DNA of 64,000 nucleotides from an uncultured Clostridium sp. (lineage in GTDB: Bacteria; Bacillota; Clostridia; TANB77; CAG-508). The translations under genes and the position numbers were made by a program. The stretch is from the NCBI GenBank assembly GCA_947087745.1, contig CAMUDX010000002.1:17151-81150 (forward strand), given 5' to 3'. Under the pieces are notes generated by a model that worked only from the letters and a program-made list of their open reading frames with translations, had not been told where the DNA came from and searched no databases. The first letter of the stretch is position 1. The number at the start of each line of letters is the position of its first letter. Positions 11,151-59,971 of this stretch are shown here, piece after piece.

Positions 11151-11252
11151 TTTTAGTTATGTTAGTATCTATTACTAACATATCCTCCTTTCTCTGCAAG
11201 CTATAACTTACACTTGCTACTGCTAAACCTTTGATTTGTATGAATTGCTGTT

Positions 11253-11965: not shown

Positions 11966-12000
11966 TAAAAAAAGACTACTAAGTAGCCTTTTATTCTAGA
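11966..12000 (-). terminator. rho-independent terminator downstream of divIVA
   Basis: aaaggctact-t-agtagtcttt hairpin followed by a T run on the minus strand, just 3' of the divIVA stop. Confidence 0.5.
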
Positions 12001-12045
12001 TTTTGATGCAAACATGTCGCATTTTATCTTTTGTACTATTTATTT

Positions 12046-12495: not shown

Positions 12496-12521
12496 TTTTA
12501 TCTTCCTTTCTTATGGATATT

Positions 12522-12998: not shown

Positions 12999-13126
12999 AA
13001 AAAAACCTCCTAAAATTTCTTATCTTTTTGTCTTTTACGCATATAGTATCTCTTTTTTTTACATTTTTGTCAATACTTTTCATTGTTGTAATACAAACTT
13101 AATATTGGTGTAATATTTTTGTAATA

Positions 13127-14368: not shown

Positions 14369-14447
14369 TTCTTTTCAGTGATGCAAGTTTCAAAACTTGC
14401 ATCTTCTCCTTTCTCTAAATTATAGATTTAAATTTATAATTTAAGAT

Positions 14448-41887: not shown

Positions 41888-42946
41888 TTATTTGTTATTT
41901 TGTTTTGAATATAATAAATCTGCTTTTCTAATATCAAACTTTGTTCCAATTTTTAGGTTAAGTGTTTTTACAAATTCTATTAGCTGTTCTATATTTTGTT
42001 CTGCATTTTCTACTTTCTTTACTTCTAGCTCTATAAATATTCCTAAATCTTTAACATCTTGAATATATGCTATAAACTCATCATTCTCATACATATAATT
42101 TTTATCAATCATATTTAAAAATCTTGTATAACCTAATATATTCAAATGCTTTTCTGCTTCTTCTATGCTCATAACTTTTAATACAGACTTTTCTGTACTT
42201 ATCTCAAACCCATTGCTATTATGATTTCTTCTTTTACAAACTATCTTTTTGTCATCTTCATTAACATATCTAATAATTAGTGTATCTGTAATTCTTCCAT
42301 TTTTAGGTGCAAATTCATTAGTTCTATCATTTTTCATATATATATCATCTAATGTAAATTCTTCTATATATTTGAATCCTTTTTCTTCTAAAACTTTAAC
42401 AATAGTTGATATTTCTTCAAAGACTTCACAAGTTATTTCTATATCTTTTATAAACTTTGTTTCTTTTTTATCACTATCATATATTCCTACTTTTTCTTCT
42501 AATAGTTTAAAATTACAACTTATATCCACAAAAAATTTCTTTTTATCTACTGTTACCATTTTATATAATTTCTTTGCCACATTTCTTATTTTTTCTGTAT
42601 TTTGTTGTATAAAATTGTTTTGTGCCATTAACAAGTTTTTATATTTAATATCTTTAATTAAATTAAAATCTATTGGTGTTAGTACATCTCCTACAACTGG
42701 AATCATATTATTGAATCTAATAATTCCATAGTCTTGTCCTATTTTTATGTATGTTGGATTATCACTATATTTTTTGTGTGTACTTTTAGGCGAGAATAAA
42801 GGTGCAAAATATTTGATATTATCTATCTCAATAATAACACCTATATATGGTCTTTTTTGATTTTTATTGTATGGAACTTTATCATCAAATTGATATAAAT
42901 AATCAATATATTTATCATCTATGTTATAAAATTTTAATCTATCCAT
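41888..42946 (-). CDS. type III toxin-antitoxin ToxN/AbiQ-family endoribonuclease fused to a C-terminal CYTH-like domain
   Basis: Residues 1-~160 align with AbiQ/ToxN (KFYNIDDKYIDYLYQFDDKVP...YIGVIIEIDNIKYFAPLFSPK...CNFKLLEEK vs AbiQ KFYTISSKYIEYLKEFDDKVP...FIGIVLEIQGHKYLAPLTSPK...CDFSLLEEK). The following ~190 aa have a CYTH/CyaB-like pattern (LIIRYV...KRR...E...LGYTRF...DLGIFIELEV). Start at MDRLKFYN, with an AAGGAGAG RBS. Confidence 0.7.
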   Translation of the reverse strand: MDRLKFYNIDDKYIDYLYQFDDKVPYNKNQKRPYIGVIIEIDNIKYFAPLFSPKSTHKKYSDNPTYIKIGQDYGIIRFNNMIPVVGDVLTPIDFNLIKDIKYKNLLMAQNNFIQQNTEKIRNVAKKLYKMVTVDKKKFFVDISCNFKLLEEKVGIYDSDKKETKFIKDIEITCEVFEEISTIVKVLEEKGFKYIEEFTLDDIYMKNDRTNEFAPKNGRITDTLIIRYVNEDDKKIVCKRRNHNSNGFEISTEKSVLKVMSIEEAEKHLNILGYTRFLNMIDKNYMYENDEFIAYIQDVKDLGIFIELEVKKVENAEQNIEQLIEFVKTLNLKIGTKFDIRKADLLYSKQNNK

Positions 42947-42965
42947 ATTCTCTCCTTTAACAAAA

Positions 42966-43000
42966 ATTGTGGGATGCTTATATAAAAACACCCCACATAG
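42966..43000 (-). terminator. hairpin between the ToxI-like repeats and the toxin gene (attenuator/terminator typical of type III TA loci)
   Basis: tgtggg(a)tg...ca(c)cccaca imperfect inverted repeat, placed exactly where ToxIN and AbiQ loci carry a terminator. Confidence 0.5.
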
Positions 43001-43007
43001 TTTTTAT

Positions 43008-43116
43008 CGCTTACTTAGGGCTAAGCTACTCCCATTTTTTATCTTCACTTAGGGCTTGAATACTCCCATTTTTTATTGTCAACTTTTGGCTTGACTACTC
43101 CCATTTGAAAATATTT
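43008..43116 (-). ncRNA. ToxI-like antitoxin RNA: three tandem ~36-nt repeats upstream of the ToxN-family gene
   Basis: Direct repeats ttacttagggctaagctactcccattttttatc / ttcacttagggcttgaatactcccattttttattgtc / aacttttggcttgactactcccatttgaaaatattt, with no interspersed spacers. Confidence 0.65.
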
Positions 43117-43141
43117 GCATATTTTCTTTGTTAGTATATTC

Positions 43142-43170
43142 ATTATACACTATTTTTATGCTATTGTCAA
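43142..43170 (-). promoter_or_regulatory. consensus sigma-70 promoter (TTGACA-17-TATAAT) driving the ToxI-like repeats and the toxin
   Basis: The minus strand reads TTGACAatagcataaaaatagtgTATAAT, about 25 nt upstream of the first repeat. Confidence 0.7.
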
Positions 43171-43227: not shown

Positions 43228-44742
43228 TTATCTGTCTATATCATCCATAGAACTACTTTTATCAATTTGATGTAATTGTTCTAATTGTTTTTCTGTAATA
43301 TTTATTACTTTACCACAACAAGGTTTAAAATCTTTATTTCCATAAACGAGCCAAATAATATTTTCTCTTTTTAGATCTTCCTTTGGCATAGTTCCAGGAC
43401 AAGGATAACCATCAGTAAAAACAATTTTGTTTATTTCTCTTTTTTTAGTAAATGATCTAACTGCTAAATCCCAATCTTCTGTCCATGCTGAATGTCCTCT
43501 AGCTCCTCTAGGTATAGTAAAATTATCTATGTCTTTTACATTTTTTATATCTACAAGTCCCCAAAATTGCTCATTAAAGCATCCTACTCTTAGTTTTGAT
43601 TGTTCTAATAATGGTTTTAGTTGCCTTAGAAATGATTTTACTAATTCTAAATCTACTGAGCCAGAAACATCAATCATAACTTCTGTTTCAGCTTCATCTT
43701 CAATATCATTTTCTTCTAATCTATATGCATAATTATTTTCTGCAATAGAACGCCTTTGACTCCAAATTGTTTCTGTTTTTTCTACTTCTCTTCGTAATAA
43801 AAGTTTCCAATCAATTTCTTCTTTACTTTTTCCTATATCCCCTAATTCTATTGTTCCTTTATCGGTACTTCGTATATCTTTTTCAGTCTTTTCGCGTCTA
43901 GATTTGAATTTTTCTCGTTTTTCTTTTCTATTATCTTCAAATTCTCCTTTTTCATCAAAATCTATATCTGTATGTTCTTCTCCAGTTTGCTCTTGTTCTT
44001 GTCCCTGTTCTTGTTTTTGCGAATTTTCATCTTGCCTTTGTCCTTTCTTTTGAGAATTTTGCTGCTCTTTAAATGCTTCTTCCCATAAACTATGGTCATC
44101 TCCTTGACTTTTACTTTTATCTGAATTTTGATTTTCAGTTTGCTCCGCATTTTCATTATTACTATCTTGTTCTTGATTTTGCTCATTGCCTTGTTTATTA
44201 TCTTGTTCATCGCTCTGTCCACTTCCTTGCTGATTATCTTGCTCTTGTTCTTGTCCATCTCCTTGTTCTTGGTCTTGGTTTTGATTTTGATTATTCTTTT
44301 GCTCTTGTTCTTTCTTTTCTTTTTCTTGCAATAATTTTTGATAAAATTCTTCTGCTGAATAATCTAGTGCTTCTGGCATGTTTACATATCCTTCTTTAAT
44401 TGTAAATCCATCTCTTTCTAAATTTGCATTTATAATAGCATCAGTTGCTATATTCCAAAGTTCTGGATCTCTTTTTACTCCACTTTTATCCTTTAATCTA
44501 TACATGTGCATAAATTTTATATGCATTATTTCATGTGCTATTGTAAATAATCTATCATTCTCACTTAAACTTGCAAAATAGTTAGGATCAACATATATAT
44601 TTTTTCCATCAGTTGCTGCTGTATGATATTTCAAGTTGTCTTTAAATTCAATATTAGCTACTGCTATTTCACTACCAAATCTAGGATATTTTGCTAGCAT
44701 TTTCCTTTTTGCATCATAAATCAAATCTGTATTAGCACTCAT
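43228..44742 (-). CDS. DUF2201-type protein: N-terminal putative metallopeptidase (HExxH) domain, acidic Q/E/K-rich linker, C-terminal VWA-like domain
   Basis: TIAHEIMHIKFMH (HExxH) in the N domain; a long low-complexity QEQEQ/KEKREK linker; a C-terminal VWA-like region (MIDVSGSVD). This is the usual partner of MoxR/AAA_5 ATPases. Confidence 0.7.
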   Translation of the reverse strand: MSANTDLIYDAKRKMLAKYPRFGSEIAVANIEFKDNLKYHTAATDGKNIYVDPNYFASLSENDRLFTIAHEIMHIKFMHMYRLKDKSGVKRDPELWNIATDAIINANLERDGFTIKEGYVNMPEALDYSAEEFYQKLLQEKEKKEQEQKNNQNQNQDQEQGDGQEQEQDNQQGSGQSDEQDNKQGNEQNQEQDSNNENAEQTENQNSDKSKSQGDDHSLWEEAFKEQQNSQKKGQRQDENSQKQEQGQEQEQTGEEHTDIDFDEKGEFEDNRKEKREKFKSRREKTEKDIRSTDKGTIELGDIGKSKEEIDWKLLLRREVEKTETIWSQRRSIAENNYAYRLEENDIEDEAETEVMIDVSGSVDLELVKSFLRQLKPLLEQSKLRVGCFNEQFWGLVDIKNVKDIDNFTIPRGARGHSAWTEDWDLAVRSFTKKREINKIVFTDGYPCPGTMPKEDLKRENIIWLVYGNKDFKPCCGKVINITEKQLEQLHQIDKSSSMDDIDR

Positions 44743-44792: not shown

Positions 44793-47018
44793 TTATTCTC
44801 TTTCATGTTCTTCATTCATAACTTCTTTAGAAACTCTTGTTAAATACGAACTATACATTTGTCCTATATCTGTATATGCTGCTATTCCATCTTTTGCATA
44901 TTCTTCTGTTTCTTTTCCTGTATGTAATGCTAAAGACATTTCTTGCAGTTCACTTATTTTCTCCATCTTTCTTTCATCATTTCCAGCCCAATATATATCA
45001 TATATTGATAAATATTCTGGATCACAATGTTTTCTTATGAATTCTCTACAACTTTCTACTTGTGTTTCATCTGCTGTTATCAATGCTGTCATATATGCAA
45101 ATCTTTCGCTTATATCTCTTGGTAAGTCTGCTTGTGTATATCCTTCTCCCATTCCTTTTGTTACTTCTTCTGGAGTCAATGTTGGAAGGTTATAAAAATC
45201 AAAAAATTCTGCTGACCATTCTTCTCTAAGTTTTGAGCTTATTGACCTTTGGATTATATCTTCTACATCTTTTCCTTCATATTTTCCTTGTTCCAAATTT
45301 CTTTCAAAATTATATAAGGTATTTGAAATTGATGTCCAACCACGAGGATCGTTTGTTCTTCCTTTACATCCATTTCTATCTAAATGTTCTTCTCCTACAT
45401 CTGGCTCTTCGTAGAAATATCCTATGTCTTGTATATCTTCGCTTTTTCCAGAATTGTTGTATTTTGATAACATATATCCTATTACTGATGGGTGTATTTT
45501 TTGTGGAATTGCATATTCTGTTATCCATTCTCCTACTTTTGGCTCCATATCTAGGATATGGTCAAATCTTTTTTCTAGTGGCTCTGCTAAATCTTCTGCT
45601 ACACTTGAATATTTCTTTTGGTTTCCTGTTGCTACAACTACTACATTGTCTGGTAATTTTAGTCCTTTTCCTATCTCTACCATTCTATTTAATACTAATG
45701 TATATACTAAACTTTGAACTGCTGGTTTTACATTTAAAAGCTCATCTAACATTATTACAACTTTTTTATCGCTTTCTTTTGACCTTTCATATACTGTATC
45801 TGCTACATCATATATATTTTGTATATTTTCTTCAACTAATTTTCTTTCTTCTTCTGTTGCTTCTTGCATAATAGCTGTTTTTGCAAAGTCTGGTGGTATG
45901 CTTTGTCCTGTTTGTAAATTTACTGATCCTACCACTTTTTCTGGGAACATGTTATTTGTTAATTTCATATAAATTAAGTCTGGATATAATGTTTTTATTC
46001 TTTCTGTTTTTCCTATTCCAGATGGTCCTCTTAATAATACTGACTCTCCTGCTTCAATCCAATTTTGTATTATTTCTGTATCTGTCATTCTGCTTCTATC
46101 AGCAGTTTTTGTTTTGTCTGGATTTAATTTTTGTAATCTAGATTTTCTTGGCTTAAATTCTTCTGTTTCTTCTGTTTGCTCTCCTAATGTTATTGTACCT
46201 CTTGATTGTTCTAAATCTCTTGCCAAATATCTATCCATAAATGTTTTTATATCTGTTTTATCAAAATCTCTTGTATGATAATTACTCTCTTTATTAAATT
46301 GAACTCCTGCAAATATTAGTTTTTCAGTTATCATCATACGAGATTTTTCATCTACAATCCATTTAACTGGAGAAACTTCTATCCATACATTATCTCCATC
46401 TTTATATTGTTCTCCATTTGAAAGTGTAAAGTTACTTCCATCATAATATGAATTAGCTTCAACTCTTACATATCTTTTTCCATTATATTCATATTCTTGA
46501 TGAGTTTGTGGCTCAAATGTTGTATCATATTCAGTGTATCGTGTTGAATCTGTTGTATAACTATTTCTTGTTTTTGAAAGTCTGCCACTTTTATATTCTC
46601 TTTCTAATTTTTCTTGCATCTCTTTTGATACTGCTTTTTGTGGATAATATCCATACTCTACTTCAAGAATACCATCTCTTGCTCTTTTCCCACTCTCTCC
46701 GTTCGTGGGGATATTAGAGATTGATGAGAACGGCAAAGCTGGGCGAGCCCCACCATTGCGAGTGTTAACATTGTAGTAATCGCTATCACCACTATCGTAA
46801 ACCACGCGCGCGTCATTATCTCCGTCATCTGACTTTGTCCAATACCAACCTGTTCTCCCCTCTAAAGAACTATCATTATCTACATGATAATCAGAAACCC
46901 ATCCACCAAGCAATACAGAAAAATCTGTTATGGCTGCCTGTGTTCCTCTTTTTTCTAATATATCTAATTTATCATTACCAAAGCATTGTTCTTCGGTTAA
47001 AAAAGTAAAATTACTCAT
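44793..47018 (-). CDS. DGR target protein 1: N-terminal C-type-lectin/DUF1566-like variable domain (contains VR1) fused to a MoxR/AAA_5-type AAA+ ATPase
   Basis: VR1 (46739-46816) encodes residues ~68-93. The upstream segment (LTEEQ...GRTGWYWTKSDD...ARVV...RNGGARPAL) resembles short CLec/DUF1566 folds. Walker A VLLRGPSGIGKTERI, Walker B VVIMLDELLN and an AAA_5-like sensor region. No signal peptide. Confidence 0.8.
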   Translation of the reverse strand: MSNFTFLTEEQCFGNDKLDILEKRGTQAAITDFSVLLGGWVSDYHVDNDSSLEGRTGWYWTKSDDGDNDARVVYDSGDSDYYNVNTRNGGARPALPFSSISNIPTNGESGKRARDGILEVEYGYYPQKAVSKEMQEKLEREYKSGRLSKTRNSYTTDSTRYTEYDTTFEPQTHQEYEYNGKRYVRVEANSYYDGSNFTLSNGEQYKDGDNVWIEVSPVKWIVDEKSRMMITEKLIFAGVQFNKESNYHTRDFDKTDIKTFMDRYLARDLEQSRGTITLGEQTEETEEFKPRKSRLQKLNPDKTKTADRSRMTDTEIIQNWIEAGESVLLRGPSGIGKTERIKTLYPDLIYMKLTNNMFPEKVVGSVNLQTGQSIPPDFAKTAIMQEATEEERKLVEENIQNIYDVADTVYERSKESDKKVVIMLDELLNVKPAVQSLVYTLVLNRMVEIGKGLKLPDNVVVVATGNQKKYSSVAEDLAEPLEKRFDHILDMEPKVGEWITEYAIPQKIHPSVIGYMLSKYNNSGKSEDIQDIGYFYEEPDVGEEHLDRNGCKGRTNDPRGWTSISNTLYNFERNLEQGKYEGKDVEDIIQRSISSKLREEWSAEFFDFYNLPTLTPEEVTKGMGEGYTQADLPRDISERFAYMTALITADETQVESCREFIRKHCDPEYLSIYDIYWAGNDERKMEKISELQEMSLALHTGKETEEYAKDGIAAYTDIGQMYSSYLTRVSKEVMNEEHERE
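46739..46816 (-). other. DGR variable repeat VR1
   Basis: 78 bp; 70/78 identical to the TR. All 8 mismatches fall at TR positions that are A on the coding (minus) strand. Flanked by GC-rich clamps (gacgcgcgcgtgg ... ggtggggctcgcccag). Confidence 0.9.
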
Positions 47019-47057: not shown

Positions 47058-47423
47058 TTAAAATGCAATAACACAGAAATTATATAGCTCCTTTGAAATG
47101 TTTTTTAATCCTTCTCTATCTTTAACAGTTAAAACTACAATCATATCTTTTGGTAATTTATATCCATAAAATTCTCTATCTTTAACTATTTGATAATATT
47201 TATTTTGTGTACTTTCATTCAATTTGTCTATTTCAGATATAATAAAATAATCAAGTTCTTCTTTATTAGAGATTTTCTCTTTAAAAATTGTAAGCAATTC
47301 ACTATCATTAGAATCAGCATTCACAATAATTTTTGAATCTAATTCTTTACAATCTTCATTTTGTATTACAACACAGGTAGCAAGGCATCCTTTTTGTAAT
47401 TCTATCAATTCTTTATTAATCAT
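47058..47423 (-). CDS. hypothetical protein (121 aa) between the two DGR target genes
   Basis: ORF only; no motif recognised. Confidence 0.35.
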   Translation of the reverse strand: MINKELIELQKGCLATCVVIQNEDCKELDSKIIVNADSNDSELLTIFKEKISNKEELDYFIISEIDKLNESTQNKYYQIVKDREFYGYKLPKDMIVVLTVKDREGLKNISKELYNFCVIAF

Positions 47424-47424
47424 A

Positions 47425-47901
47425 TTAAATTTTATCCCCTTTCGTAATACTAAAAAAACTCAATATTTTATTAAGAAACTTTTTTAATATATTTTCTTTT
47501 TTATATTCTACTATATTTTTTTCTATCACATTTTCATTTTGAATTATTTTATTTTCTTTTTTGTTTTTAAAAATATCATTTACATTATATGTTTCTTTTA
47601 TTTTTTCTTTTTTCATATTGTTTTCATGTATTATATTTTTATATTTTTCATGTTCTTCTTTATTACACCACCATGTAATATATATAAAGCCTAAAAGTTC
47701 TTTAGTTTGTTTTCTTAAATTAAAGCCATTGATTGGCTGTTCATGATTAAATTTAGATTTATAGCTTTTACTTGAAATATCAGTTAAAAACTTTATAAAA
47801 CTTTGTGGTATTCTTGCAACATCTTCTTTATTTGTATGATTTAGTATGTCTAATACTTCAACTGCTGCTTCACTATATTCAGCTTCTCTCATTTTCTTCA
47901 C
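47425..47901 (-). CDS. hypothetical protein (158 aa) between the two DGR target genes
   Basis: ORF only; its start overlaps the end of target gene 2 by 23 nt. Confidence 0.35.
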   Translation of the reverse strand: MKKMREAEYSEAAVEVLDILNHTNKEDVARIPQSFIKFLTDISSKSYKSKFNHEQPINGFNLRKQTKELLGFIYITWWCNKEEHEKYKNIIHENNMKKEKIKETYNVNDIFKNKKENKIIQNENVIEKNIVEYKKENILKKFLNKILSFFSITKGDKI

Positions 47902-50110
47902 TCCTAACTTCTTCTTTAGAATCTCTTGTTAAATACGAACTATACATTTGTCCTATATCTGTATATGCTGCTATTCCATCTTTTGCATATTCTTCTGTTT
48001 CTTTTCCTGTATGTAATGCTAAAGACATTTCTTGCAGTTCACTTATTTTCTCCATCTTTCTTTCATCATTTCCAGCCCAATATATATCATATATTGATAA
48101 ATATTCTGGATCACAATGTTTTCTTATGAATTCTCTACAACTTTCTACTTGTGTTTCATCTGCTGTTATCAATGCTGTCATATATGCAAATCTTTCGCTT
48201 ATATCTCTTGGTAAGTCTGCTTGTGTATATCCTTCTCCCATTCCTTTTGTTACTTCTTCTGGAGTCAATGTTGGAAGGTTATAAAAATCAAAAAATTCTG
48301 CTGACCATTCTTCTCTAAGTTTTGAGCTTATTGACCTTTGGATTATATCTTCTACATCTTTTCCTTCATATTTTCCTTGTTCCAAATTTCTTTCAAAATT
48401 ATATAAGGTATTTGAAATTGATGTCCAACCACGAGGATCGTTTGTTCTTCCTTTACATCCATTTCTATCTAAATGTTCTTCTCCTACATCTGGCTCTTCG
48501 TAGAAATATCCTATGTCTTGTATATCTTCGCTTTTTCCAGAATTGTTGTATTTTGATAACATATATCCTATTACTGATGGGTGTATTTTTTGTGGAATTG
48601 CATATTCTGTTATCCATTCTCCTACTTTTGGCTCCATATCTAGGATATGGTCAAATCTTTTTTCTAGTGGCTCTGCTAAATCTTCTGCTACACTTGAATA
48701 TTTCTTTTGGTTTCCTGTTGCTACAACTACTACATTGTCTGGTAATTTTAGTCCTTTTCCTATCTCTACCATTCTATTTAATACTAATGTATATACTAAA
48801 CTTTGAACTGCTGGTTTTACATTTAAAAGCTCATCTAACATTATTACAACTTTTTTATCGCTTTCTTTTGACCTTTCATATACTGTATCTGCTACATCAT
48901 ATATATTTTGTATATTTTCTTCAACTAATTTTCTTTCTTCTTCTGTTGCTTCTTGCATAATAGCTGTTTTTGCAAAGTCTGGTGGTATGCTTTGTCCTGT
49001 TTGTAAATTTACTGATCCTACCACTTTTTCTGGGAACATGTTATTTGTTAATTTCATATAAATTAAGTCTGGATATAATGTTTTTATTCTTTCTGTTTTT
49101 CCTATTCCAGATGGTCCTCTTAATAATACTGACTCTCCTGCTTCAATCCAATTTTGTATTATTTCTGTATCTGTCATTCTGCTTCTATCAGCAGTTTTTG
49201 TTTTGTCTGGATTTAATTTTTGTAATCTAGATTTTCTTGGCTTAAATTCTTCTGTTTCTTCTGTTTGTTCTCCTAAAGTTATTGTACCTCTTGACTGTTC
49301 TAAATCTCTTGACAAGTATCTATCCATAAATGTTTTTATATCTGTTTTATCAAAGTCTTTGGTATGGTAATCTCTAGTATGATTAAATTGTACTCCAGAG
49401 AATATCAATTTATCTGTTAGCATGACTTTTTCTCTTTCATCAACTAACCATTTTACAGGAGAAACTTCTACCCATACATTATCTCCATCTCTGTATTGTT
49501 CTCCATTTGAAAGTGTAAATCTATTTCCTCCAAAATCTGAATTAGCTTCAACTCTTACATATCTTTTACCATTATATTCATATTCTTCATGTTGTTTTGC
49601 TAAAAATTTTTCGCCATAAGCATCATATTTTCTTGAATCTGTTGTATAACTATTTCTTGTTTTGGATATACTACCACTTCTATATGCTCTTTCTAGTCTT
49701 TCTTGCATGTCTTTTGATGCTGCTTTTTGTGGGTAATATCCATACTCTACTTCAAGAATACCATCTCTTGCTCTTTTCCCACTCTCTCCGTTCGTGGGGA
49801 TATTAGAGATTGATGAGAACGGCAAAGCTGGGCGAGCCCCACCATCGCGAGTGAGAACATGGGAGCAATGCCTATGACCATTATCGTTAACCACGCGCGC
49901 GTCATTATCTCCATCATCTGATTTTGTCCAATAATATCCTGTTCTTCCCTCCAAAGAACTATCATTATCTATATGATTGTTGTCAGAAACATAAGCACCT
50001 AAAAGAATAGAGAAATCTGTTATTGCTGCTTTTGTTCCTCTCTTCTCTAATATATCTAATTTATCACTTCCAAAATATTGTTCTTCGGTTAAAAAAGTAA
50101 AATTACTCAT
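47879..50110 (-). CDS. DGR target protein 2 (paralog of 44793..47018; contains VR2)
   Basis: Same architecture as target 1. VR2 encodes ...DARVVNDNGHRHCSHVLTRDGGARP..., versus TR-encoded DARVVNDNGNRNYNNVNKRNGGARP. Confidence 0.8.
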   Translation of the reverse strand: MSNFTFLTEEQYFGSDKLDILEKRGTKAAITDFSILLGAYVSDNNHIDNDSSLEGRTGYYWTKSDDGDNDARVVNDNGHRHCSHVLTRDGGARPALPFSSISNIPTNGESGKRARDGILEVEYGYYPQKAASKDMQERLERAYRSGSISKTRNSYTTDSRKYDAYGEKFLAKQHEEYEYNGKRYVRVEANSDFGGNRFTLSNGEQYRDGDNVWVEVSPVKWLVDEREKVMLTDKLIFSGVQFNHTRDYHTKDFDKTDIKTFMDRYLSRDLEQSRGTITLGEQTEETEEFKPRKSRLQKLNPDKTKTADRSRMTDTEIIQNWIEAGESVLLRGPSGIGKTERIKTLYPDLIYMKLTNNMFPEKVVGSVNLQTGQSIPPDFAKTAIMQEATEEERKLVEENIQNIYDVADTVYERSKESDKKVVIMLDELLNVKPAVQSLVYTLVLNRMVEIGKGLKLPDNVVVVATGNQKKYSSVAEDLAEPLEKRFDHILDMEPKVGEWITEYAIPQKIHPSVIGYMLSKYNNSGKSEDIQDIGYFYEEPDVGEEHLDRNGCKGRTNDPRGWTSISNTLYNFERNLEQGKYEGKDVEDIIQRSISSKLREEWSAEFFDFYNLPTLTPEEVTKGMGEGYTQADLPRDISERFAYMTALITADETQVESCREFIRKHCDPEYLSIYDIYWAGNDERKMEKISELQEMSLALHTGKETEEYAKDGIAAYTDIGQMYSSYLTRDSKEEVRSEENERS
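47905..49320. repeat. ~1.4-kb segment 100% identical to 44819-46230 (tandem duplication / gene conversion between the two DGR target genes); approximate extent
   Basis: Identical antisense ORF pairs (44837..45040 = 47926..48129; 45233..45871 = 48322..48960; 45881..46141 = 48970..49230) and identical C-terminal ~480 aa of the two target proteins. The N-terminal ~260 aa are only ~75% identical. Confidence 0.85.
49828..49905 (-). other. DGR variable repeat VR2
   Basis: 78 bp; 12 mismatches to the TR, all at TR coding-strand adenines; same GC-rich flanks as VR1. Confidence 0.9.
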
Positions 50111-50230: not shown

Positions 50231-51349
50231 TTACAGTTTTTGTGGAAAAGTTTCATTTTTTAATTTTTTACTTTCTTTTGTGTCTTTGATATGGTTATAA
50301 AATGCATTTTTTCTAATATAAACATATTCCTCATCAACAATATTTTTTTCTCTTAATTTATGCAATGTTTTTAAATGTTTTTTTAATCTTTGTTTAGATG
50401 AAACTCGTAATTTTCTTGTTATACTGCCATCTTCATTTAAGATATGCCTATATCCTAAAAAATCTATTCCATTTTTTACAATTCCTATTTGTGTTTTTTG
50501 ATTTAGTGATAGCTTTAACTCATGTTCACATTTCTCCTTTATTTTTGAAAGTGAATATTGTAAATAACTTTTATCTCTATGAACCAAAATCATGTCGTCC
50601 ATATAACGAATATACCCTTTTACTCTTAAATCTTCTTTAACATATCTGTCGATTACATTTAAATATAATAGTGCAAACCATTGACTAGATTGATTTCCAA
50701 GTGGTAAGCCAACATCTGCATTATTAGGCTGTTCTTTTACTAATTTTTCTATCATCCACATCTCATCACTTGAAAAATTAATCTTTTTTAGTAAATTTAA
50801 TAGCACTTCGTGATCTATGCTTTGAAAATACTTTCTTATATCACATTTTAGAAAAAATATTTTATTGTTTTGTTCTTTTCTATATTCATTTCTTAAAAAA
50901 TTTTCTAATCGTTTTATAGCAAATGTTGTTCCTTTTTCTTTTCTGCATGCTGCATTATCATATATTAGTTTTCTATCAATTTTATCTCTTAGTGCCACAT
51001 CACAAAAACACTTTATAACAACTCTATCTCTAAAAGGTAATGCTTCTATAACTCTTTCTTTTGGCTCATATATTAAAAATTCTTTATACTTTCCTAATTT
51101 ATATTTCTTTGACATTATATCGTTCATAAGATTACTTATATTACTTGATAAATTAGCTTCAAATCGTATCACTTCTCCTTTATGTTGTTTAGATTTTCTA
51201 CAACCTTTATATGCATCATATAAATTTTCAAATGTAAAAATTTCTTTTAATTCCATATTGTATTTCCTCCTAAAAAAAGAACGCTCCTTAAAACTTGCAA
51301 AAAATAGATTATCTATTCGTTGCTCGTGTAAGCGTTCATATTCTTCCAC
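50231..51349 (-). CDS. DGR reverse transcriptase
   Basis: RT motifs: LKCDIRKYFQSIDH (motif 2), GLPLGNQSSQWFALLYLNVIDRYV (the DGR-specific [LI]GxxxSQ motif 4), RYMDDMILV (YxDD). 372 aa with no maturase or endonuclease domains. Confidence 0.85.
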   Translation of the reverse strand: MEEYERLHEQRIDNLFFASFKERSFFRRKYNMELKEIFTFENLYDAYKGCRKSKQHKGEVIRFEANLSSNISNLMNDIMSKKYKLGKYKEFLIYEPKERVIEALPFRDRVVIKCFCDVALRDKIDRKLIYDNAACRKEKGTTFAIKRLENFLRNEYRKEQNNKIFFLKCDIRKYFQSIDHEVLLNLLKKINFSSDEMWMIEKLVKEQPNNADVGLPLGNQSSQWFALLYLNVIDRYVKEDLRVKGYIRYMDDMILVHRDKSYLQYSLSKIKEKCEHELKLSLNQKTQIGIVKNGIDFLGYRHILNEDGSITRKLRVSSKQRLKKHLKTLHKLREKNIVDEEYVYIRKNAFYNHIKDTKESKKLKNETFPQKL

Positions 51350-51480
51350 CGCACTATTTCTTTAGCGGTTAGAAAAGAGAAAAATTCCTTCACTTTAAAA
51401 TACTGATATATTTTCCTTAAAATATATTTCTCTGATTCTTTATTTTAAATCCACTTTTATAGGATTTATCAAAAGTGAAT

Positions 51481-51558
51481 CTGGGCGAGCCCCACCATTG
51501 CGTTTGTTAACATTGTTGTAATTTCTATTACCATTATCGTTAACCACGCGCGCGTCAT
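51481..51558 (-). other. DGR template repeat (TR)
   Basis: 78-bp non-coding segment between avd and the RT, homologous to VR1 and VR2. On the minus strand it is rich in AAY codons (aac gat aat ggt aat aga aat tac aac aat gtt aac aaa cgc aat). Confidence 0.9.
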
Positions 51559-51629
51559 AGAGAATGGGGCTACAAAGAAAAACCCGAAATAAATTTTTCT
51601 CTTAATTAAAAGCCTTTCAGCCTAAAATC

Positions 51630-52211
51630 CTAACTTCGTTTTTTCCATCTTTCATCATCACTCTTTTTCCATGCTACTGTTAAATTAATTGCTTCTGATA
51701 ATTGAATAGAAATTTGTTTGTATTGTTTCTTTAATATGCATCCAGAATTTTCTGCCACCATAGAAACATATCCTAGTAATTTTAATTTTACTATTGCCTC
51801 TTTTTGTAATTCTTCTCTTTTTGTTTTCTTTTCTACTGCATCCATTCTAATAAAATTAGCTTCTAATAAGCACTCTAATGTATCAAGACAATAGTTCTGC
51901 ATTCTATTTACAAATACTCCTCTAAATTTTTTTGGAGATTTTTCTGTAACTGCAATTATATAAGTTGCTAGTTTCTTTACTACTGTTATAACCATTAAAT
52001 CATTTGCATTAAATGGCAACTTATTCACTTGTTCTAATTCATTGTCATTTTCTACGCTTTCTTCAATTTCTTTTTTATTAAATCTTTTATTCTCAGCAGT
52101 AGCAATAGCTTGCTTCACTGCTACTTTATCCTCAATACTGTTTTCAGCTCCGTTAAAATCTTCTAATTTTTTAGGTATTTTCAAATTACTATCTCTACTA
52201 ACTTGTAACAT
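51630..52211 (-). CDS. Avd-like accessory variability determinant (four-helix-bundle, IVS-protein family), with possible N-terminal extension
   Basis: The C-terminal ~120 aa (from MVITVVKKLATYIIAVTEKSPKKFRGVFVNRMQ...LLGYVSMVAENSG...LSEAINLTVAWKK) fit the basic four-helix Avd/23S-rRNA-IVS pattern (..kfPK.er..l...a.....K...L...W.K). It sits immediately upstream of the TR. The first ~70 aa of the ORF may not be translated. Confidence 0.55.
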   Translation of the reverse strand: MLQVSRDSNLKIPKKLEDFNGAENSIEDKVAVKQAIATAENKRFNKKEIEESVENDNELEQVNKLPFNANDLMVITVVKKLATYIIAVTEKSPKKFRGVFVNRMQNYCLDTLECLLEANFIRMDAVEKKTKREELQKEAIVKLKLLGYVSMVAENSGCILKKQYKQISIQLSEAINLTVAWKKSDDERWKKRS

Positions 52212-52279: not shown

Positions 52280-53260
52280 TTAAAGTTCTCCTTTGATTTT
52301 TGTTATCTTATTTAAAAGCTTATTGTACTCCTCTCTACTAACACCTGTTCCTTCTAAAGACTTCTGATACTTTTTTTCTTCTTTAGATAGATATTCTTCT
52401 GGATCATCATAATATAATAATAATTCTAACATCAAACACTCTATTTCACATTCTGTATGCTTTTTATTTTTTATTGTAATACCTAATTTTTTTAATATCC
52501 TTTTCTCCTTAAAACTTAACATTTTTCTTATATTTAAAATCTCTAAATTATGATATTTTTCATCCCATTCTAAATATTTTTTATTTTCTAATTCTCTTTT
52601 TATTCTTTTTAATTCTGTATATATTTCTTCATAATCATTAACTGGTTTCTTTATATATCCTGCTACTTCTAGTCCACCATTTATAACATCACTTTTGTTA
52701 TCTGCAGATATAACTAAAAATGCAATATCTTTATTTTTGGCAAAATAACTCTTTATAATATCTAAACCTGTATATCTATGATTACGCATAAGGTCTGTTA
52801 TTACAATTTCTGGCTTTAATTCTTCGATCATTTTTATTTCATCTTCATCACTATTAGCAATTCCTAATATTTCTATATCTTCATATTTTTCTAAAAATTC
52901 TTTTATAAATTTGCATATATGAATATTGTCATCTGCAATTATGATTTTAATTTTTCTACTCAATTTAATCTTTCCTTCCATTATTTCATTATTTATTTTC
53001 ACTATTGTTTCTTTAGCAGCAATAGTAAATATCTCCTTTAAATTTGTCTTTAAATAATTATTGGTATCCTCTACATATCCAAATATTTCTTCATATAATT
53101 TCTTTTTTGTTTCAGTATCAAAGTTATTATTTTCTTCAATATTCTGTAATATTTGATTTATTCTCTTTTGTTTATTACAGTTTAAAATTTTTAATAATAA
53201 TTCATCAAAATCTTGTTCTTCACAAATCTCATCTATTAAATCAAATTTTATCTCTTTCAT
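52280..53260 (-). CDS. receiver (REC) domain protein with uncharacterised N- and C-terminal regions
   Basis: Central KIIIADDNIHICKFIKEF...EIVITDLMRNHRYTGLDIIKSY...AFLVISADNKSD...GYIKKP has the CheY-like acidic pocket, phospho-acceptor Asp, T/S and K. Confidence 0.6.
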   Translation of the reverse strand: MKEIKFDLIDEICEEQDFDELLLKILNCNKQKRINQILQNIEENNNFDTETKKKLYEEIFGYVEDTNNYLKTNLKEIFTIAAKETIVKINNEIMEGKIKLSRKIKIIIADDNIHICKFIKEFLEKYEDIEILGIANSDEDEIKMIEELKPEIVITDLMRNHRYTGLDIIKSYFAKNKDIAFLVISADNKSDVINGGLEVAGYIKKPVNDYEEIYTELKRIKRELENKKYLEWDEKYHNLEILNIRKMLSFKEKRILKKLGITIKNKKHTECEIECLMLELLLYYDDPEEYLSKEEKKYQKSLEGTGVSREEYNKLLNKITKIKGEL

Positions 53261-54892: not shown

Positions 54893-56497
54893 TTAGTACA
54901 TTGGTGTTCCATACCCTAAAATATCTAAACTATTTATGTTATAATCTCTCCTGCAACAACTATCACTTGAATTTCCTTCTATTGTATAAACTCTTCCATT
55001 TTCTGTTTTTTCTACTATGCCTACATGATCTGCTTGTCCACTTCTTACTCCTGTGTCCTTATCTGCCCAGTCAAAGAAAATTATATCCCCTGGTTTTGGA
55101 GTGAAACCTTTTTCTTTCCAAAGTCCACAAGTTCTAAACCAGTCAACACCCTCGCTCTGACATCCTGCAAATTTTGGAATTAGTCCTGCTTCAATGTAGC
55201 CACATTCATTGGCACACCACGAAACAAAACAAGCACACCATTCTACACGAGAATCAAAACCATACCAACTCCAATAAGGTTGTCCTCCAACATTTCCTAT
55301 TTGTGAAGCTGCAACTAGCACAATGTCATTGCTCCCAACAGATGAGCCATATATTACTGATGCCCACATATTAGCATATTTATTGTCTGTCAATTCTTGT
55401 AATTGTTTTCTTTGTTCTTGACTAAAATTGTATTTGTCTGCCATCTCATTTGCTGTTTTGCCTGTTATCGTAATATGCAACTTAACTTTTGTTACTGTTA
55501 CTCTATCAGTAGATGTTAAGCCTATTCTTATTTCTTCATGACTTTCTTCATCTTTTGTAAATGATATTTCATTCATTTCCCAAAAAATCTCTTTTAGAAG
55601 ATTAACCTTTTCATCATTTAAGGTTATAACATCTGCTTCATTATTACCATTGCTTAATTTAACTGTATATATTGCTAAAACATCTTTCCATTCGGCTCTA
55701 TGAGAATTTATATCGTACTCATCATAAGGATTATCTTTCTGTATTTGTGTTATCTTATTCATAAACTCTGTATTTAAGTCTGCTATTACTTGATTCATTG
55801 TTACTACTTGTTGTTGCCCATTTATAGTTATTGTGCTACCTGTATCTTCGCTTGAAAAGAAGATACCAAAAATTGAACTAACTAGCATTGCTATTAAGCA
55901 AACTACAATTATAATTAAAACAACGATCCAGCCACCTGCTACTAAAAATGCAATTAGTGCTTTTGTTGCAACTATAATAGCTTTTATTGCTGCTATTGTT
56001 GCTTTTATTCCTACTTTTATCGCCTTTACTGTTGCTTTAGCTGTTGCCTTTGCCATTTGTATTGCTCTTTTAGTGGCTTTGGCTGTTGTTTTTGCTACTT
56101 GTTTTGTTGTTTTAACTGTTCTGTCTGCTGTTTTTATTCCTTTTTTTGTAGTCTTTGTTGCATTTTTCATTTGTTTTACTACTTTTTTGGCATGATTTTT
56201 CTTTTTTATCGTTTTCATTTTTTGATTTACATTTTGTATATTTTGTACTGTTTTGTCAAAATTCTTCTTGCCATATTTATTAAGTCTGTAAACATTATTA
56301 GGAAGATTACTTGCTGTTTTTGATATTTTATTTATTGCGTATTCTGTTCCATTATTACTTGTTTCTTCTTGGTATGTTTCTTTTGTTTTGTCTTTTGCTT
56401 GTACTAATCTGTCTTTCATTTTTTCTGTTCCAACTACTGCTTTGTTAATTGTTTTTATTGTTCCTTTTTTACTCTGTTTAACTTTAATATCTGCCAA
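54893..56497 (-). CDS. conjugative-element cell-wall hydrolase with C-terminal CHAP (NlpC/P60-like) domain (Tn916 Orf14-like)
   Basis: K/T/A-rich N-terminal region and a TM helix. The C-terminus has SWYGFDSRVEWCACFVSWC...HVGIV, a CHAP-type Cys/His pair. Confidence 0.7.
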   Translation of the reverse strand: MADIKVKQSKKGTIKTINKAVVGTEKMKDRLVQAKDKTKETYQEETSNNGTEYAINKISKTASNLPNNVYRLNKYGKKNFDKTVQNIQNVNQKMKTIKKKNHAKKVVKQMKNATKTTKKGIKTADRTVKTTKQVAKTTAKATKRAIQMAKATAKATVKAIKVGIKATIAAIKAIIVATKALIAFLVAGGWIVVLIIIVVCLIAMLVSSIFGIFFSSEDTGSTITINGQQQVVTMNQVIADLNTEFMNKITQIQKDNPYDEYDINSHRAEWKDVLAIYTVKLSNGNNEADVITLNDEKVNLLKEIFWEMNEISFTKDEESHEEIRIGLTSTDRVTVTKVKLHITITGKTANEMADKYNFSQEQRKQLQELTDNKYANMWASVIYGSSVGSNDIVLVAASQIGNVGGQPYWSWYGFDSRVEWCACFVSWCANECGYIEAGLIPKFAGCQSEGVDWFRTCGLWKEKGFTPKPGDIIFFDWADKDTGVRSGQADHVGIVEKTENGRVYTIEGNSSDSCCRRDYNINSLDILGYGTPMY

Positions 56498-56508: not shown

Positions 56509-59500
56509 CTAATTGTTTATTTCTCTTGCAATAACTACTAATCTTCCGTTTTTATTGCTATATTCACAAGTAGAAAGTGTAATAAATTTATCATGATATT
56601 TTGGTTTTATATTTGTTTCATAAAATGATAATTCTTTACACTTATTTACAAATGTATTGAACTCATCTTCATTACTAAAATTCACAAAATTATAATATTT
56701 AAAAGTATTTTTGCTATATACCACTGTTTTGAATACTGCAAAAATTTCGTATTTTTTCATTTCTTCCAATGTTGTAAAGTCTATAATCTTATGATTTTCG
56801 TAAAATTCTTTTGATTTATAATTTTCTAATGCACCAAATACTTTTTTATGATTCATGTGATGCCCATATATTACAAGATTATCACTTGTGTTTATATTGC
56901 ATTCTTCTGACATATAAGGTGTTCCATAAGATGAATACTTTTTATAAAAATCTCTATGCAAGTAATAGTTAGGATTACTTTTTGTCTGCATTATTGGATA
57001 GTTTATTGTTGTATCATTTATTTTTAACCAACCTACAATATCACTATTGATAGCATATAAGTTATCTATATTTATTACTGTTTCTTCTTGTTTTTTATCT
57101 TCTGGATTTGTTTGTTCTACTATTTCAATTAGTTCTTCAAAATTGTTTTCTTGTTCTTTATTTTGTTTCAATTCTTTATAAATACAATAACTGCTAATAA
57201 GAATTGAACTTATTAGCAGCATAATACAAAATACATATAATATTTTTTTCACTATGCGACACCCTCTCCGTGGTTTGGTTGTCATTAGTTTGTATAACTC
57301 TGTATTTCGTGGGAATCTATTTACAAATGGTATTAGTGAACTTCCTATTTTTATTAGCCCTTCTCCTGCATTTACATTTGTAATATAGCTCATTTGTAAG
57401 TCTGATATATTTAATAATTTTGCAAGCTCTACTCTATCTGTACTAGCTTGATTTAACATGATAATAAGCTCACTATTTGCTAGCATTGTTCTTGCTGTAT
57501 GACTTTGTAACATATCTTCCACATTTTGCGTTATTCCCGTACAATATGCTCCATATTTACGAACTCTTTTCCATAAAGTGAATAAGAAGTTTGCTGAATA
57601 TTCATATTGGAATAACAAGTAAATTTCATCAATAAAAATAAAGGTATTTCTACCTTTTGACCTATTCATTGTTATTCTATTCAAAATCGAATCTAGCACT
57701 ACTAACATTCCAATAGGTAGTAGTTGCTTTCCTAAATCTAAAATGTCATAACACACTAAACGATTATGTGTATCAACATTTGTAGGTTTTGCAAAAGTGT
57801 TCAAACTACCATTTACAAACAATTCAATAGCAAGTGCTATTTCTTTTGCTTCTGGCTCTTGCTGTTTTAATAGTTCTTCATAGAAATCTTGTAGTGTAGG
57901 TGGTGTTCCTTGATAATTTCCTTGTTGGTAATATCTATATACACTTGCTGTGCATCTGTCTATTATAGATTTTTGTTTTGCACCTAAATTATTACTGCCT
58001 ACTAGTTGTTCGCATAGTGAAAGTATGAACTCTGATTTTAATATGATAGGATTTGCTCCATCTCCATAATCTTTGTTCATGTCCATAGCATTGATATGAT
58101 TTCCACTTGTTGCTGATATTTTTATTACTTCTCCACCTAACGATTTTACAAGTGAACTTGCTTCCCTTTCTGGATCTACAATTATCACATCTGCGTTAGG
58201 ATCTTTTAACATTATAGAAACTATTTCTTCTTTTGCTATGAAACTCTTTCCACTACCACTAACACCTAGAATAAAGCTATTTCCGTTCAATAATTGCTTT
58301 CTATCTGCAATAATCATATTTTTGCTAATAACATTTTGCCCATAGTATATTCCGTTTTCGTGTCGTATCTCTTGTACTCGAAATGGCATAAATACTGCAA
58401 GCGATTCTGTTGTAAGTGTTCTTAAAGTATCAATTTTTCTTACTCCAAAAGGCATAGCTGTATTTAAGCCATCAAGTTGCTGAAATTTTAGCACACCGAA
58501 CTGACATAAATGCTTTCTTGCTATTGTTAGCAATGCCTCTGTGTCATTGTCTAGTTCTTCTTTGCTTTCTGCTGTATGCACCATTGTAAGAACTGATATA
58601 AACATTCTTTGATCACGAGTTATTAAGTCATCTAAAAACTCTTTGCTTTGTTCTCTTTGTTGCTCCATGTCATAAGGAATAATGGCTGAAAAGTTATTAT
58701 TGGCATTTTGTCGCCTTTGCCAATTAGTTATGTTTGTTTCTATTCCTAATCTTCTATTCTCTGCTTCTCTAACTGCCTCATCCATAGGTATTGGTATAAC
58801 ATCTATACTCATCATCATATTTTTATTTATATCTGTTAATTCTGCTACCATACTGTCCTTAATATAGCTTGCATACTCTTTCAAGAATATAACTCTGCCA
58901 TATCTATTTCCAATTTTGAAATAATCGCTTTCAAATTCCATAGAATCTGGACAAATAAAATCCTTAAAGCTATGTCCTTTTCTCATATTAGTTATCATAT
59001 CAAAATTGAATGATGTTTCTTCTCCTACTCTATAAAAGTCATGGAATATTCTTAATCTTTCTACTGCATCTAATTCAATACATATAGAGCCTAATTCTTT
59101 AAAGTGGTTTATTAAGTCCGTTCCTACTCTTGCAAAATAATTCTTTGCTTCTTCTATACTTTTTTTATCAACTGATATTGTTATAAACTTCTCTTGTATT
59201 ATACCATTTGAGGCTGTTGCCTTATCTAACAACATTTTATTATATTCTTTTCTAAATTTATCTAACTCATCATTTTCCATAGGTAATAGCATAGTTTCTT
59301 CAAAGTCAATTTTATTTAATCTTCTATTGATTATAGTTATTTTAGTAGTAGCACCTGTATCAAATGAATTTAATAACTCTGAATATTCTAAAAACATTGC
59401 TTCTTTATCATCTCTACTTGCTACTGCATAATTTATATCACTAAATTTATAACATTTTGAATACTTATTTTTTCCAATAAAAAAGATGCCATCTTCCCAT

Positions 59501-59589: not shown

Positions 59590-59971
59590 TACTTTGCGAA
59601 TCCTCCTTGTTTTTAATTTTTCTCTCTTTTTTTACTTTTCTATTTTCTATATTTTTCAAATCTTCGTAGTATAAGTTTATTGGCTTGAAAGTTAATCTTT
59701 TAGGCGTAAGTATCATTGATTTAATCCAAGCTGCAACGAACTTTTCTGCTGTCATTCCATTATATTTAATAAAACCTAGTGCTGCGAATGGTGCTGCACC
59801 TAATATGCAAACCCATGACAGTGTTTCAATTCCACAATAAGGTTTCAATAAAAAATATAGAATAACAGCTACTACACAAGCACATATAGAAAAAATGAAC
59901 TGCCTTAATGACAGTCCAAAAAATATGCTTTCCGTATATTCTCTTATTTCTCTATTGATTTTTACTTCCAA
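59573..59971 (-). CDS. PrgI/VirB3-like small membrane protein (Tn916 Orf17-like)
   Basis: Two TM helices; position immediately upstream of VirB4, overlapping it. Confidence 0.5.
   Translation of the reverse strand: MEVKINREIREYTESIFFGLSLRQFIFSICACVVAVILYFLLKPYCGIETLSWVCILGAAPFAALGFIKYNGMTAEKFVAAWIKSMILTPKRLTFKPINLYYEDLKNIENRKVKKERKIKNKEDSQSIENIK

Follow-up and report, generated by a model that had tools for sequence, protein, structure and literature searches.

Diversity-generating retroelements (DGRs), which have been catalogued in the thousands, are the only natural systems known, apart from vertebrate immunity, that hypermutate chosen proteins. Of the targets characterised so far, nearly all bind outside the cell, as phage tail fibres, adhesins and lipoproteins do. 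The subject of this report is a DGR cassette found in a stretch of 64,000 nucleotides from an uncultured Clostridium sp. (assembly GCA_947087745.1, contig CAMUDX010000002.1, positions 17,151 to 81,150 of the forward strand), which I will call the window. The best overall explanation of the locus, and one that I consider very probable, is a functional DGR that diversifies two MoxR-like AAA+ fusion proteins, for which a role as selectors is proposed.

The described systems closest to this locus come from several directions. One is the DGR of Bordetella phage BPP-1, in which avd, the template repeat (TR) and the reverse transcriptase (RT) gene brt serve the target mtd. Another is the family of gut phage proteins in which DUF6273, a C-type-lectin-like domain, is the DGR target, placed at the N-terminus in the "tentaclins" (PMC10743442; bioRxiv 10.1101/2024.10.15.618418). 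DGR-diversified C-type-lectin sensors tied to conflict systems with MoxR and vWA proteins have been proposed in cyanobacteria and Thiohalocapsa (PMC7159879, PMC10907252), and Iyer et al. (2021; PMC7824862) described, in group 2.2 jumbo phages and rV5-like phages, a MoxR ATPase together with a vWA protein that carries an N-terminal metallopeptidase. As to placement, Wu et al. (PMC5758913) found an N-terminal variable repeat (VR) in 3 of 372 DGRs, and the DGR of Legionella is, like the one in the window, carried by an integrative conjugative element (ICE; PMC5758913). I found in the literature no description of a DGR-varied N-terminal domain fused to a MoxR-like ATPase and accompanied by a metallopeptidase-vWA protein; large catalogues may list these loci as unannotated DGRs.

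Template, variable repeats and retroelement machinery

A sequence-only reading of this DNA had described a complete DGR in the order avd-TR-RT-targets, and RT, Avd, TR and two VRs are indeed all present in that order, with all genes of the cassette on the minus strand (Table 1). The 78-nt non-coding segment that it took to be homologous to two coding segments aligns with both of them without gaps (51558..51481, read on the minus strand, with 49905..49828 and 46816..46739). The TR (composition A26 C15 G21 T16) differs from the VR of target 1 at 12 positions and from that of target 2 at 8, and the earlier count stands in that all 20 mismatches sit on TR adenines, the 52 non-A positions being identical in both VRs. 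Had 20 mismatches fallen at random, the probability that all would land on the 26 adenines among 78 positions is (26/78)^20 = 2.9e-10. When both strands of the whole window were scanned for matches to the non-A positions of the TR, allowing up to 12 mismatches, only three places were found, the TR and the two VRs, and no further TR-like copies.

The homology has sharp limits on both sides, the GC-rich block GACGCGCGCGTGG at its 5' end and GGTGGGGCTCGCCCAG at the other. The latter is identical in the TR and both VRs, and the bases immediately beyond it differ (ATTCAC vs CTTTGC), so that the locus possesses a GC-rich 3' boundary element common to TR and VR, similar to the element known as initiation of mutagenic homing, with immediate divergence past it. 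The two targets show ~100% identity in the 120 nt 3' of the VR. Each VR keeps the reading frame of its gene, both genes being intact open reading frames (ORFs), of 743 and 741 amino acids (aa), and the TR, read in the frame of the targets, is as rich in AAY codons as had been claimed: it comprises eight of them, along with GAT, AGA, TAC and AAA. The 25 adenines that fall in codons when the TR is read in this frame correspond to ~1.1e15 DNA variants and 1.6e13 protein variants. From this anatomy and from the population data below, adenine-specific, TR-templated rewriting of 12 codons in two genes is very probably the mechanism at work.

Comparison with related loci places this rewriting in the recent past. 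Scanning one genome per species with the RT gave 80 loci (referred to below by L numbers), of which L001-L037 represent the same DGR family in gut metagenome-assembled genomes (MAGs) labelled uncultured Clostridium, Clostridia, Bacilli or Tenericutes. The names of the MAGs (MGBC, Lapin, Water_deer) point to several animal hosts and other gut samples, and the cassette is kept in about 35 gut MAG species. L001, whose RT is 100% identical, shows 18 differences over the 2,900 nt from avd into target 1, and 15 of the 18 are in the VR, all at TR-A positions; for L002 the corresponding numbers are 15 of 24, again all at TR-A positions. Near-identity of about 99.9% outside the VR combined with 15 TR-A differences inside it indicates that mutagenesis took place after a very recent common ancestor. 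TR/VR pairs whose differences are confined to, or dominated by, adenine positions recur in about 30 related loci.

The same pattern is visible at the level of protein. In 120 metagenomic homologues (identity 86% or more), residues 75-77, 79-84, 86, 87 and 89 have a column entropy of 1.9-3.4 bits, and residues 78, 85 and 88, which correspond to the codons GGT, GTT and CGC, one of ~0-0.1 bits. The high-entropy residues are exactly those of the 12 A-bearing TR codons (AAC GAT AAT. AAT AGA AAT TAC AAC AAT. AAC AAA. AAT, with dots at the three invariant residues). That the DGR is genuine and recently active is thus well supported, the evidence for activity being comparative throughout.

Variation of another kind is seen in a few of the relatives. 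In L025 (11098-11400) the TR carries a TAG codon, and the VR there is an almost unmutated copy of the TR, so that the target is interrupted. In L020 (11134-11460) and in target 1 of L005 (2498-2830) the reading frame breaks inside the VR.

The identity of the RT is clear from several comparisons. It matches Pfam RVT_1 (2e-16) and the PHROG family "Reverse transcriptase" (2.5e-95), and falls below the cut-offs of all NCBIfam models for group II introns, retrons and defense-associated RTs. Its best relative of solved structure is PDB 8ub7 (E 1.1e-36 over residues 4-293, about 290 residues), a 328-aa "Reverse transcriptase" that is probably the Bordetella DGR enzyme bRT; its E value is better by 24 orders of magnitude than that of the next PDB match. 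The LPLGNQSSQ and YMDD motifs noticed earlier in the ORF adjacent to the TR can both be read directly, the former aligning with IPIGSLTSQ of 8ub7. Surveys from Doulatov's of 2004 onward reportedly find that DGR RTs carry an SQ-containing motif 4, unlike the RTs of group II introns and retrons. By that motif and by its match to 8ub7, the enzyme is assigned to the DGR clade. Its start is most likely the ATG at 51256, not the GTG at 51349 that opens the listed ORF, because the AGGAGG and the ATG are conserved in relatives and the sequence upstream of them is the conserved structured RNA described below.

The gene directly 5' of the TR, which had been likened to Avd, matches the PHROG family phrog_3206 "Avd protein of DGR" through residues 59-191 (8.6e-18). 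Its matches to Pfam bAvd (9e-5) and NCBIfam DivGenRetAVD (1.2e-6) are both under the curated cut-offs, and a phmmer search with it against PDB sequences gave only matches at chance level (telomerase RT and Rab escort proteins, E 0.1-0.4). The protein is conserved over its full length, including the N-terminal extension, in L001-L033 (64-99%), while the distant DGRs L038-L040 match only residues ~70-191.

Between avd and the RT gene lies a conserved, covarying RNA structure that encloses the TR. The region from TR to RT was aligned over 23 related loci, and the consensus obtained with RNAalifold has eight helices, in which pairing is kept through double-sided changes in 22 of 51 pairs. With this structure held fixed, 98.4% of cells are paired, compared with 48-64% when the partners are slid by 1-3 columns; the slid controls show double-sided changes at only 2-5 pairs, and all 500 shuffles fall short of the observed value. 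The single-sequence fold gives z = -3.1. No Rfam family reached its gathering score in a scan of the whole window. The pairing of the spacer beside the 3' end of the TR (helices H3/H4) resembles that in the Bordetella DGR RNA.

Target proteins, partner gene and genomic setting

The two targets are paralogues in which a variable N-terminal module is joined through a disordered linker to an ATPase. The VR occupies residues 69-94, near the N-terminus and thus away from the C-terminal position typical of DGR targets. Clustering at 50% identity gives 1,780 clusters that contain the N-terminal module (residues 1-~275), a discrete unit; in many it is a stand-alone protein of 270-350 aa, and in others it carries one of various C-terminal fusions. 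Pfam gives no match to the module of the window's own targets, and 9 of 56 members of the module's family match Pfam DUF6273 weakly. In the AlphaFold2 model of aa 1-310 (predicted local distance difference test score 91.4, and 82.2 for a model of aa 1-118), the VR sits in a small alpha/beta subdomain (1-~118), after which comes a beta-rich one. As modelled, the VR falls in the beta-hairpin region of what appears to be a minimal C-type-lectin-like ligand-binding domain of the DUF6273 kind. Searches against PDB were less informative: a profile of the N-terminal domain gave only a spurious match to hemopexin repeats, driven by a motif like YxxxGKKYVRV, and a phmmer search with the target against PDB sequences found no match at E up to 0.1.

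The ATPase half is more readily classified. Residues 328-486 match Pfam AAA_5 (27.6 bits against a cut-off of 22), the PHROG family "ATPase" (phrog_1297) is matched at 1.1e-32, and the Walker motifs are intact, with Walker A (GPSGIGKT), Walker B (MLDE) and the RF-containing EKRFD all read directly. By tblastn, aa 266-668 are ~23-26% identical to phage genes annotated as MoxR ATPase, such relatives being annotated MoxR ATPase in rV5-like phages and ATPase in PA5oct-like jumbo phages. The targets have no hydrophobic segment (in target 1 the maximum Kyte-Doolittle mean over 19 residues is 1.27) and no transmembrane or signal-like segment, and are therefore predicted to be cytoplasmic.

The halves of the two targets differ in how far they have diverged. 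The 1,320 bp that encode the ATPase and C-terminal region are 100% identical (46161..44842 in target 2 and 49250..47931 in target 1), whereas identity between the N-terminal domains is no more than ~80%. L005, L010 and L011 repeat this contrast (96-99% vs 81-83%), and in L034 both halves of its two targets are ~98% identical. This pattern suggests concerted evolution of the motor half by gene conversion, with the divergence of two receptor paralogues maintained. That the identical 1.3-kb halves might be an artefact of assembly was considered and rejected, since the two-target arrangement was assembled independently in L005, L010 and L011.

The partner gene, which follows the target gene or genes in every related locus long enough to show it, down to 29-37% identity, encodes a protein with a metallopeptidase domain and a putative vWA domain, called here the metallopeptidase-vWA protein. 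Its N-terminus matches Pfam DUF2201_N "putative metallopeptidase" (3.1e-27), and its C-terminal 205 aa cover the whole of PF09967 "VWA-like domain (DUF2201)", weakly (E 0.01, 16.4 bits against a cut-off of 26.4). The protein as a whole matches phrog_1314 (2.4e-44), and both HEIMH and the DxSxS-like DVSGS are read directly. Between the targets lie two small genes. One of them, orf158, follows the target in L005, L010, L011, L014, L017, L018, L020, L022 and L034, is absent from the more divergent loci, and has no match in Pfam, NCBIfam, PADLOC or PHROGs; the 23 nt by which it overlaps the end of target 1 suggest translational coupling. The other, orf121, is kept together with orf158, and occurs without it in L026 and L029.

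The cassette measures about 6-9 kb. Its order in the related loci is avd-TR-RT-[variable domain::AAA+]-(orf158-orf121)-([second target])-metallopeptidase/vWA, and loci whose RT is as little as 62% identical, or whose ATPase is only ~26% identical, still keep it. Retention over such divergence implies that the association is old and selected. A scan of the cassette for sigma-70 promoters found fewer sites than in shuffled sequence and was uninformative on operon structure. Directly upstream of avd is a gene for a receiver-domain protein, kept there only in closer relatives (L001-L005, L010, L011 and partly L020). It may regulate the cassette, of which its membership is uncertain.

The first ~25 kb of the window contain chromosomal housekeeping genes (RNase J-like, FtsK, MutL, RecG and TsaD). 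From a tyrosine integrase onward, the genes are those of toxin-antitoxin systems and regulators, of the DGR cassette and of a Gram-positive type IV secretion system (T4SS), and from these surroundings it is concluded that the cassette is here the cargo of an ICE. L001 and L002 share the conjugative context. In L025, a circular MAG of 1.2 Mb, the cassette (9044-14970) lies between the gene for valyl-tRNA synthetase and Wzy/LepA, outside any conjugative element, and in L017 (9018-15663) it lies between PASTA kinase/RlmN/aspartyl-tRNA synthetase and a second aspartyl-tRNA synthetase with GatA, thus with an aspartyl-tRNA synthetase on each side. These ICE-free copies indicate that the cassette is an autonomous module, for which the ICE looks like one vehicle. 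A prophage context was rejected, the neighbours being PrgI, VirB4, CHAP, toxin-antitoxin genes and integrase, with no capsid or tail genes. The 10-kb cassette has no DNA match of near-identity among the plasmids of PLSDB or the phages of INPHARED, and ARAGORN found no tRNA or tmRNA in the window, so that no attachment site of the tRNA type can be named.

Several neighbours deserve mention in their own right. Right after the DGR operon (41888-43170, minus strand) is the layout of a type III toxin-antitoxin system: a perfect sigma-70 consensus promoter (43170-43142), a tandem repeat of 35 nt x 3.1 (43001-43106), a strong terminator (42997-42968) and, after the terminator, an ORF of the ToxN/AbiQ family (Pfam ToxN_toxin 2e-44, PADLOC AbiQ 1.5e-46). 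The ORF as listed has 367 aa, about twice the usual length of ToxN. At its C-terminus the VirB4/TraG-like ATPase is fused to a sortase domain (Pfam Sortase 4e-13, residues 855-1022), which is unusual among conjugation ATPases. Around the element lie further genes of mobility or conflict and regulators, namely an IS91-family transposase (27284-28408), a HipA-like kinase (29520-30410), a 251-aa protein with a MazF/PemK domain (36591-37346), a Spo0A-C-like regulator on the plus strand (38816-39535) and a fusion of radical-SAM and receiver domains (39568-40758). Nearly all genes in the window are on the minus strand, and the composition of the strands is extremely asymmetric, the plus strand having 45.5% T, 26.7% A, 17.4% C and 10.4% G (G+C 27.7%).

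Table 1. Coordinates of the DGR cassette, its RNA and neighbouring genes, counted from the first nucleotide of the window
Feature	Position	Strand	Description
TR	51481..51558	-	78 nt, non-coding, 26 adenines
VR of target 1	49828..49905	-	residues 69-94; 12 A-position substitutions
VR of target 2	46739..46816	-	8 A-position substitutions
Structured DGR RNA	51279..51600	-	TR, flanks and spacer; RNAalifold consensus
Helix H1	51600-51592 with 51386-51378	-	long-range, encloses TR
Helices H3/H4	51484-51473 with 51395-51387	-	at and just after TR 3' end, pairs with spacer
Hairpin H6	51427-51406	-	
Hairpin H7	51376-51342	-	
Hairpin H8	51337-51279	-	
RT	50231..51256	-	341 aa; probable start ATG 51256 (AGGAGG Shine-Dalgarno, conservation)
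avd	51630..52211	-	193 aa, with extra N-terminal extension of ~60-70 aa
Target gene 1	47879..50110	-	743 aa; variable receptor domain aa 1-~275, linker, MoxR-like AAA+ ATPase aa ~315-500, uncharacterised C-terminal region
Target gene 2	44793..47018	-	741 aa; paralogue of target 1, same architecture
orf158	47425..47901	-	small conserved gene; 23-nt overlap with end of target 1
orf121	47058..47423	-	small conserved gene; sub-threshold DUF7201 coiled-coil match as sole family match
Partner gene	43228..44742	-	504 aa; N-terminal zinc metallopeptidase (HEIMH), acidic/Q-rich linker, C-terminal vWA-like domain (DVSGS, like a metal-ion-dependent adhesion site)
Receiver-domain protein	52280..53260	-	326 aa; Pfam Response_reg 3.3e-9; directly upstream of avd; no recognisable output domain
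Tyrosine integrase	34988-36202		integrase of the element
CHAP hydrolase	54893-56497	-	T4SS
VirB4/TraG-like ATPase	56509-59589	-	T4SS, 1,026 aa
PrgI	59573-59971	-	Gram-positive T4SS

Proposed role and rival explanations

The cassette may be supposed to work as follows. The region from avd through the TR to the RT would be transcribed, with the TR held in the conserved RNA scaffold. The RT, together with Avd, would copy the TR into complementary DNA, misincorporating at template adenines, and the product would replace the VRs of the two downstream genes, GGTGGGGCTCGCCCAG marking the 3' boundary of the exchange. In this way 12 codons would be randomised (about 1e13 peptides) in the beta-hairpin region of the C-type-lectin-like domain. 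I infer these steps of retrohoming from the Bordetella paradigm. The variable domain would then select a ligand or substrate, an intracellular protein and most plausibly one of an invading phage or other mobile element, and recognition would be coupled to ATP-driven remodelling by the AAA+ ring and to cleavage or signalling by the metallopeptidase-vWA partner.

That the targets act as hypervariable intracellular sensors or substrate selectors is a tentative proposal, somewhat short of an even chance, suggested by their architecture. It is favoured by analogy with the DGR-diversified C-type-lectin sensors put forward for MoxR/vWA conflict systems (PMC7159879, PMC10907252). A more specific version, to which I would give only about one chance in several, is that the cassette is a self-contained, mobile device of "anticipatory" recognition, in which the DGR-varied AAA+ protein binds a protein of an invader and delivers it to the metallopeptidase-vWA protein or activates the latter. 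If true, this would be an immune or counter-immune device based on hypermutation at the level of protein, in unicellular gut bacteria of small genome, and distinct from the ternary VMAP systems, which to date are linked with multicellular bacteria.

A number of points weigh against a functional DGR with selector targets. With respect to function, the argument for a sensor or selector is drawn from architecture, and the sole published proposal for the phage pair homologous to the ATPase and its partner is a chaperone of virion assembly, not a sensor (PMC7824862). PADLOC has no model for the target, the partner, orf158 or orf121, beyond a marginal match to DolB. With respect to activity, the evidence for retrohoming is comparative. 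In the Bordetella phage, a hairpin or cruciform downstream of the VR enhances homing, a feature that is not universal among DGRs; here the 111 nt at and beyond the 3' end of the VRs fold into a DNA hairpin or cruciform no better than shuffled sequences do (z -0.26 and -1.36). Finally, the targets are broken in L025, L020 and, for target 1, L005, so the system would appear dispensable or decaying in some hosts, though the breaks could also be artefacts of assembling reads from heterogeneous VRs.

The rival that survives best, while still unlikely, has the diversified ATPases serving the ICE: they would recognise proteins of diverse recipients or hosts (such as restriction, defence or T4SS-related ones) and neutralise or remodel them, as an anti-defence or host-range device. 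The position of the cassette speaks for this, since it lies directly downstream of the T4SS genes and on the same strand, in the window as in L001 and L002, on an element that bears a tyrosine integrase, and the DGR of Legionella is likewise borne by an ICE (PMC5758913). Yet the same cassette stands between housekeeping genes, free of conjugation genes, in L025 and L017, and homologues of VirB4 and CHAP are found beside it only in L001, L002 and, weakly, L028.

It is less likely again, and in my judgement quite improbable, that the MoxR-like ATPase and the metallopeptidase-vWA protein form an assembly chaperone and processing machine, with the variable domain serving to vary which structural client, such as a component of the surface or of a pilus, is handled, and not to sense invaders. 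Both proteins do fall into phage-borne families (phrog_1297 at 1.1e-32 and phrog_1314 at 2.4e-44), 321 phage records have tblastn matches to the ATPase half, and Iyer et al. proposed for the pair a role in virion assembly and proteolytic processing (PMC7824862). The phage homologues, however, are without the N-terminal variable domain, their matches beginning at about residue 266-328; no structural phage genes or clients are found beside the chromosomal copies of the cassette; and it is hard to see why a chaperone of one fixed client would require ~1e13 variants of a binding site.

That the locus is a fossil, its A-specific pattern a record of mutagenesis that has since ceased, is very improbable: a single assembly cannot show ongoing activity, and some relatives have disrupted targets or, in L025, a stop-bearing TR, but no ORF of the window is disrupted, the RT retains its catalytic YMDD, the RNA scaffold, with its compensatory changes, is under purifying selection, and 15 TR-A positions of the VR differ between elements that are otherwise 99.9% identical.

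The selector proposal gains its interest from the joining of a diversified domain directly to an AAA+ motor, predicted to be cytoplasmic, with a partner that joins a protease to a putative vWA domain. If the variable domain does select intracellular ligands, then the notion of "DGR-diversified antigen sensors" would extend from the large ternary systems of multicellular cyanobacteria and sulfur bacteria to a minimal, binary system in gut Firmicutes, and the cassette would offer a small, tractable model in which to test whether bacteria use hypermutation for intracellular recognition. It is in any case attractive to study, being compact, spread on conjugative elements and chromosomal islands, and recently active. 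The N-terminal VR, the RNA scaffold backed by covariation and the layout with two targets may also prove useful for engineering DGRs as tools of directed evolution.

Comparison with described systems

The machinery of the cassette is close to that of the BPP-1 DGR. Both have an Avd-type protein, a TR between avd and the RT gene, an RT of the same family, strictly adenine-specific differences between TR and VR, a GC-rich 3' boundary in TR and VR, structured spacer RNA after the TR, and a VR situated in a C-type-lectin-like binding domain. They differ in arrangement and in what is diversified. The order is avd-TR-RT-target here and target-avd-TR-RT in BPP-1, and the VR is near the N-terminus here and at the C-terminus there. 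The Avd protein of the window has its additional N-terminal ~60-70 aa, and no hairpin was detected 3' of its VRs. In place of a tail-fibre receptor-binding protein encoded by a phage there are two AAA+ ATPase fusions, predicted to be cytoplasmic and encoded by an ICE or chromosome of a gut Firmicute.

With the tentaclins and other targets of the DUF6273 type in phages of gut Firmicutes (FP_Toutatis) the locus shares the VR in a DUF6273-like minimal C-type-lectin domain and the gut Firmicute setting. The remainder of the protein is different. Tentaclins are phage receptor-binding proteins in which the C-type-lectin domain is followed by immunoglobulin-like or fibronectin type III domains, whereas here a beta-rich subdomain and a MoxR-like AAA+ ATPase come after it and neither of those domains is present; the gene, moreover, belongs to an ICE or chromosome, where theirs belong to phages. 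A tblastn search of 50,697 phage records gave no match to the N-terminal variable domain.

The VMAP-ternary systems (Kaur et al. 2020; Dore et al. 2024) resemble the locus in coupling a DGR-varied C-type-lectin domain, physically or genetically, to a MoxR-type AAA+ protein, a peptidase and a vWA domain, which in the window is putative, and in having targets that are predicted to be intracellular sensors, not adhesins. In those systems the lectin domain is of the formylglycine-generating enzyme type and is C-terminal, either on the vWA protein or on a separate protein beside the MoxR gene. They also include a third component, VMAP, marked by a conserved VMAP-C domain. In the window a DUF6273-like variable domain is joined, at the N-terminus, to the ATPase itself, and the putative vWA protein has an N-terminal zinc metallopeptidase. 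General family scans recognised no VMAP component in the cassette, although no search with a VMAP profile was made and a very divergent one is possible. The hosts differ as well, being multicellular bacteria in the one case and small-genome gut Clostridia and Bacilli, known as MAGs, in the other.

The jumbo-phage pair is alike in the sequence of its genes: first one for an AAA_5-type ATPase, and then one for a protein that begins with a metallopeptidase and ends in a vWA domain, which in the window's protein is putative. The ATPases of those phages are without the N-terminal variable domain and are not targets of a DGR, and the role proposed for them is virion assembly. Set beside all of these systems, the DGR itself is of a well-known kind, and it is the architecture of its targets that seems new.

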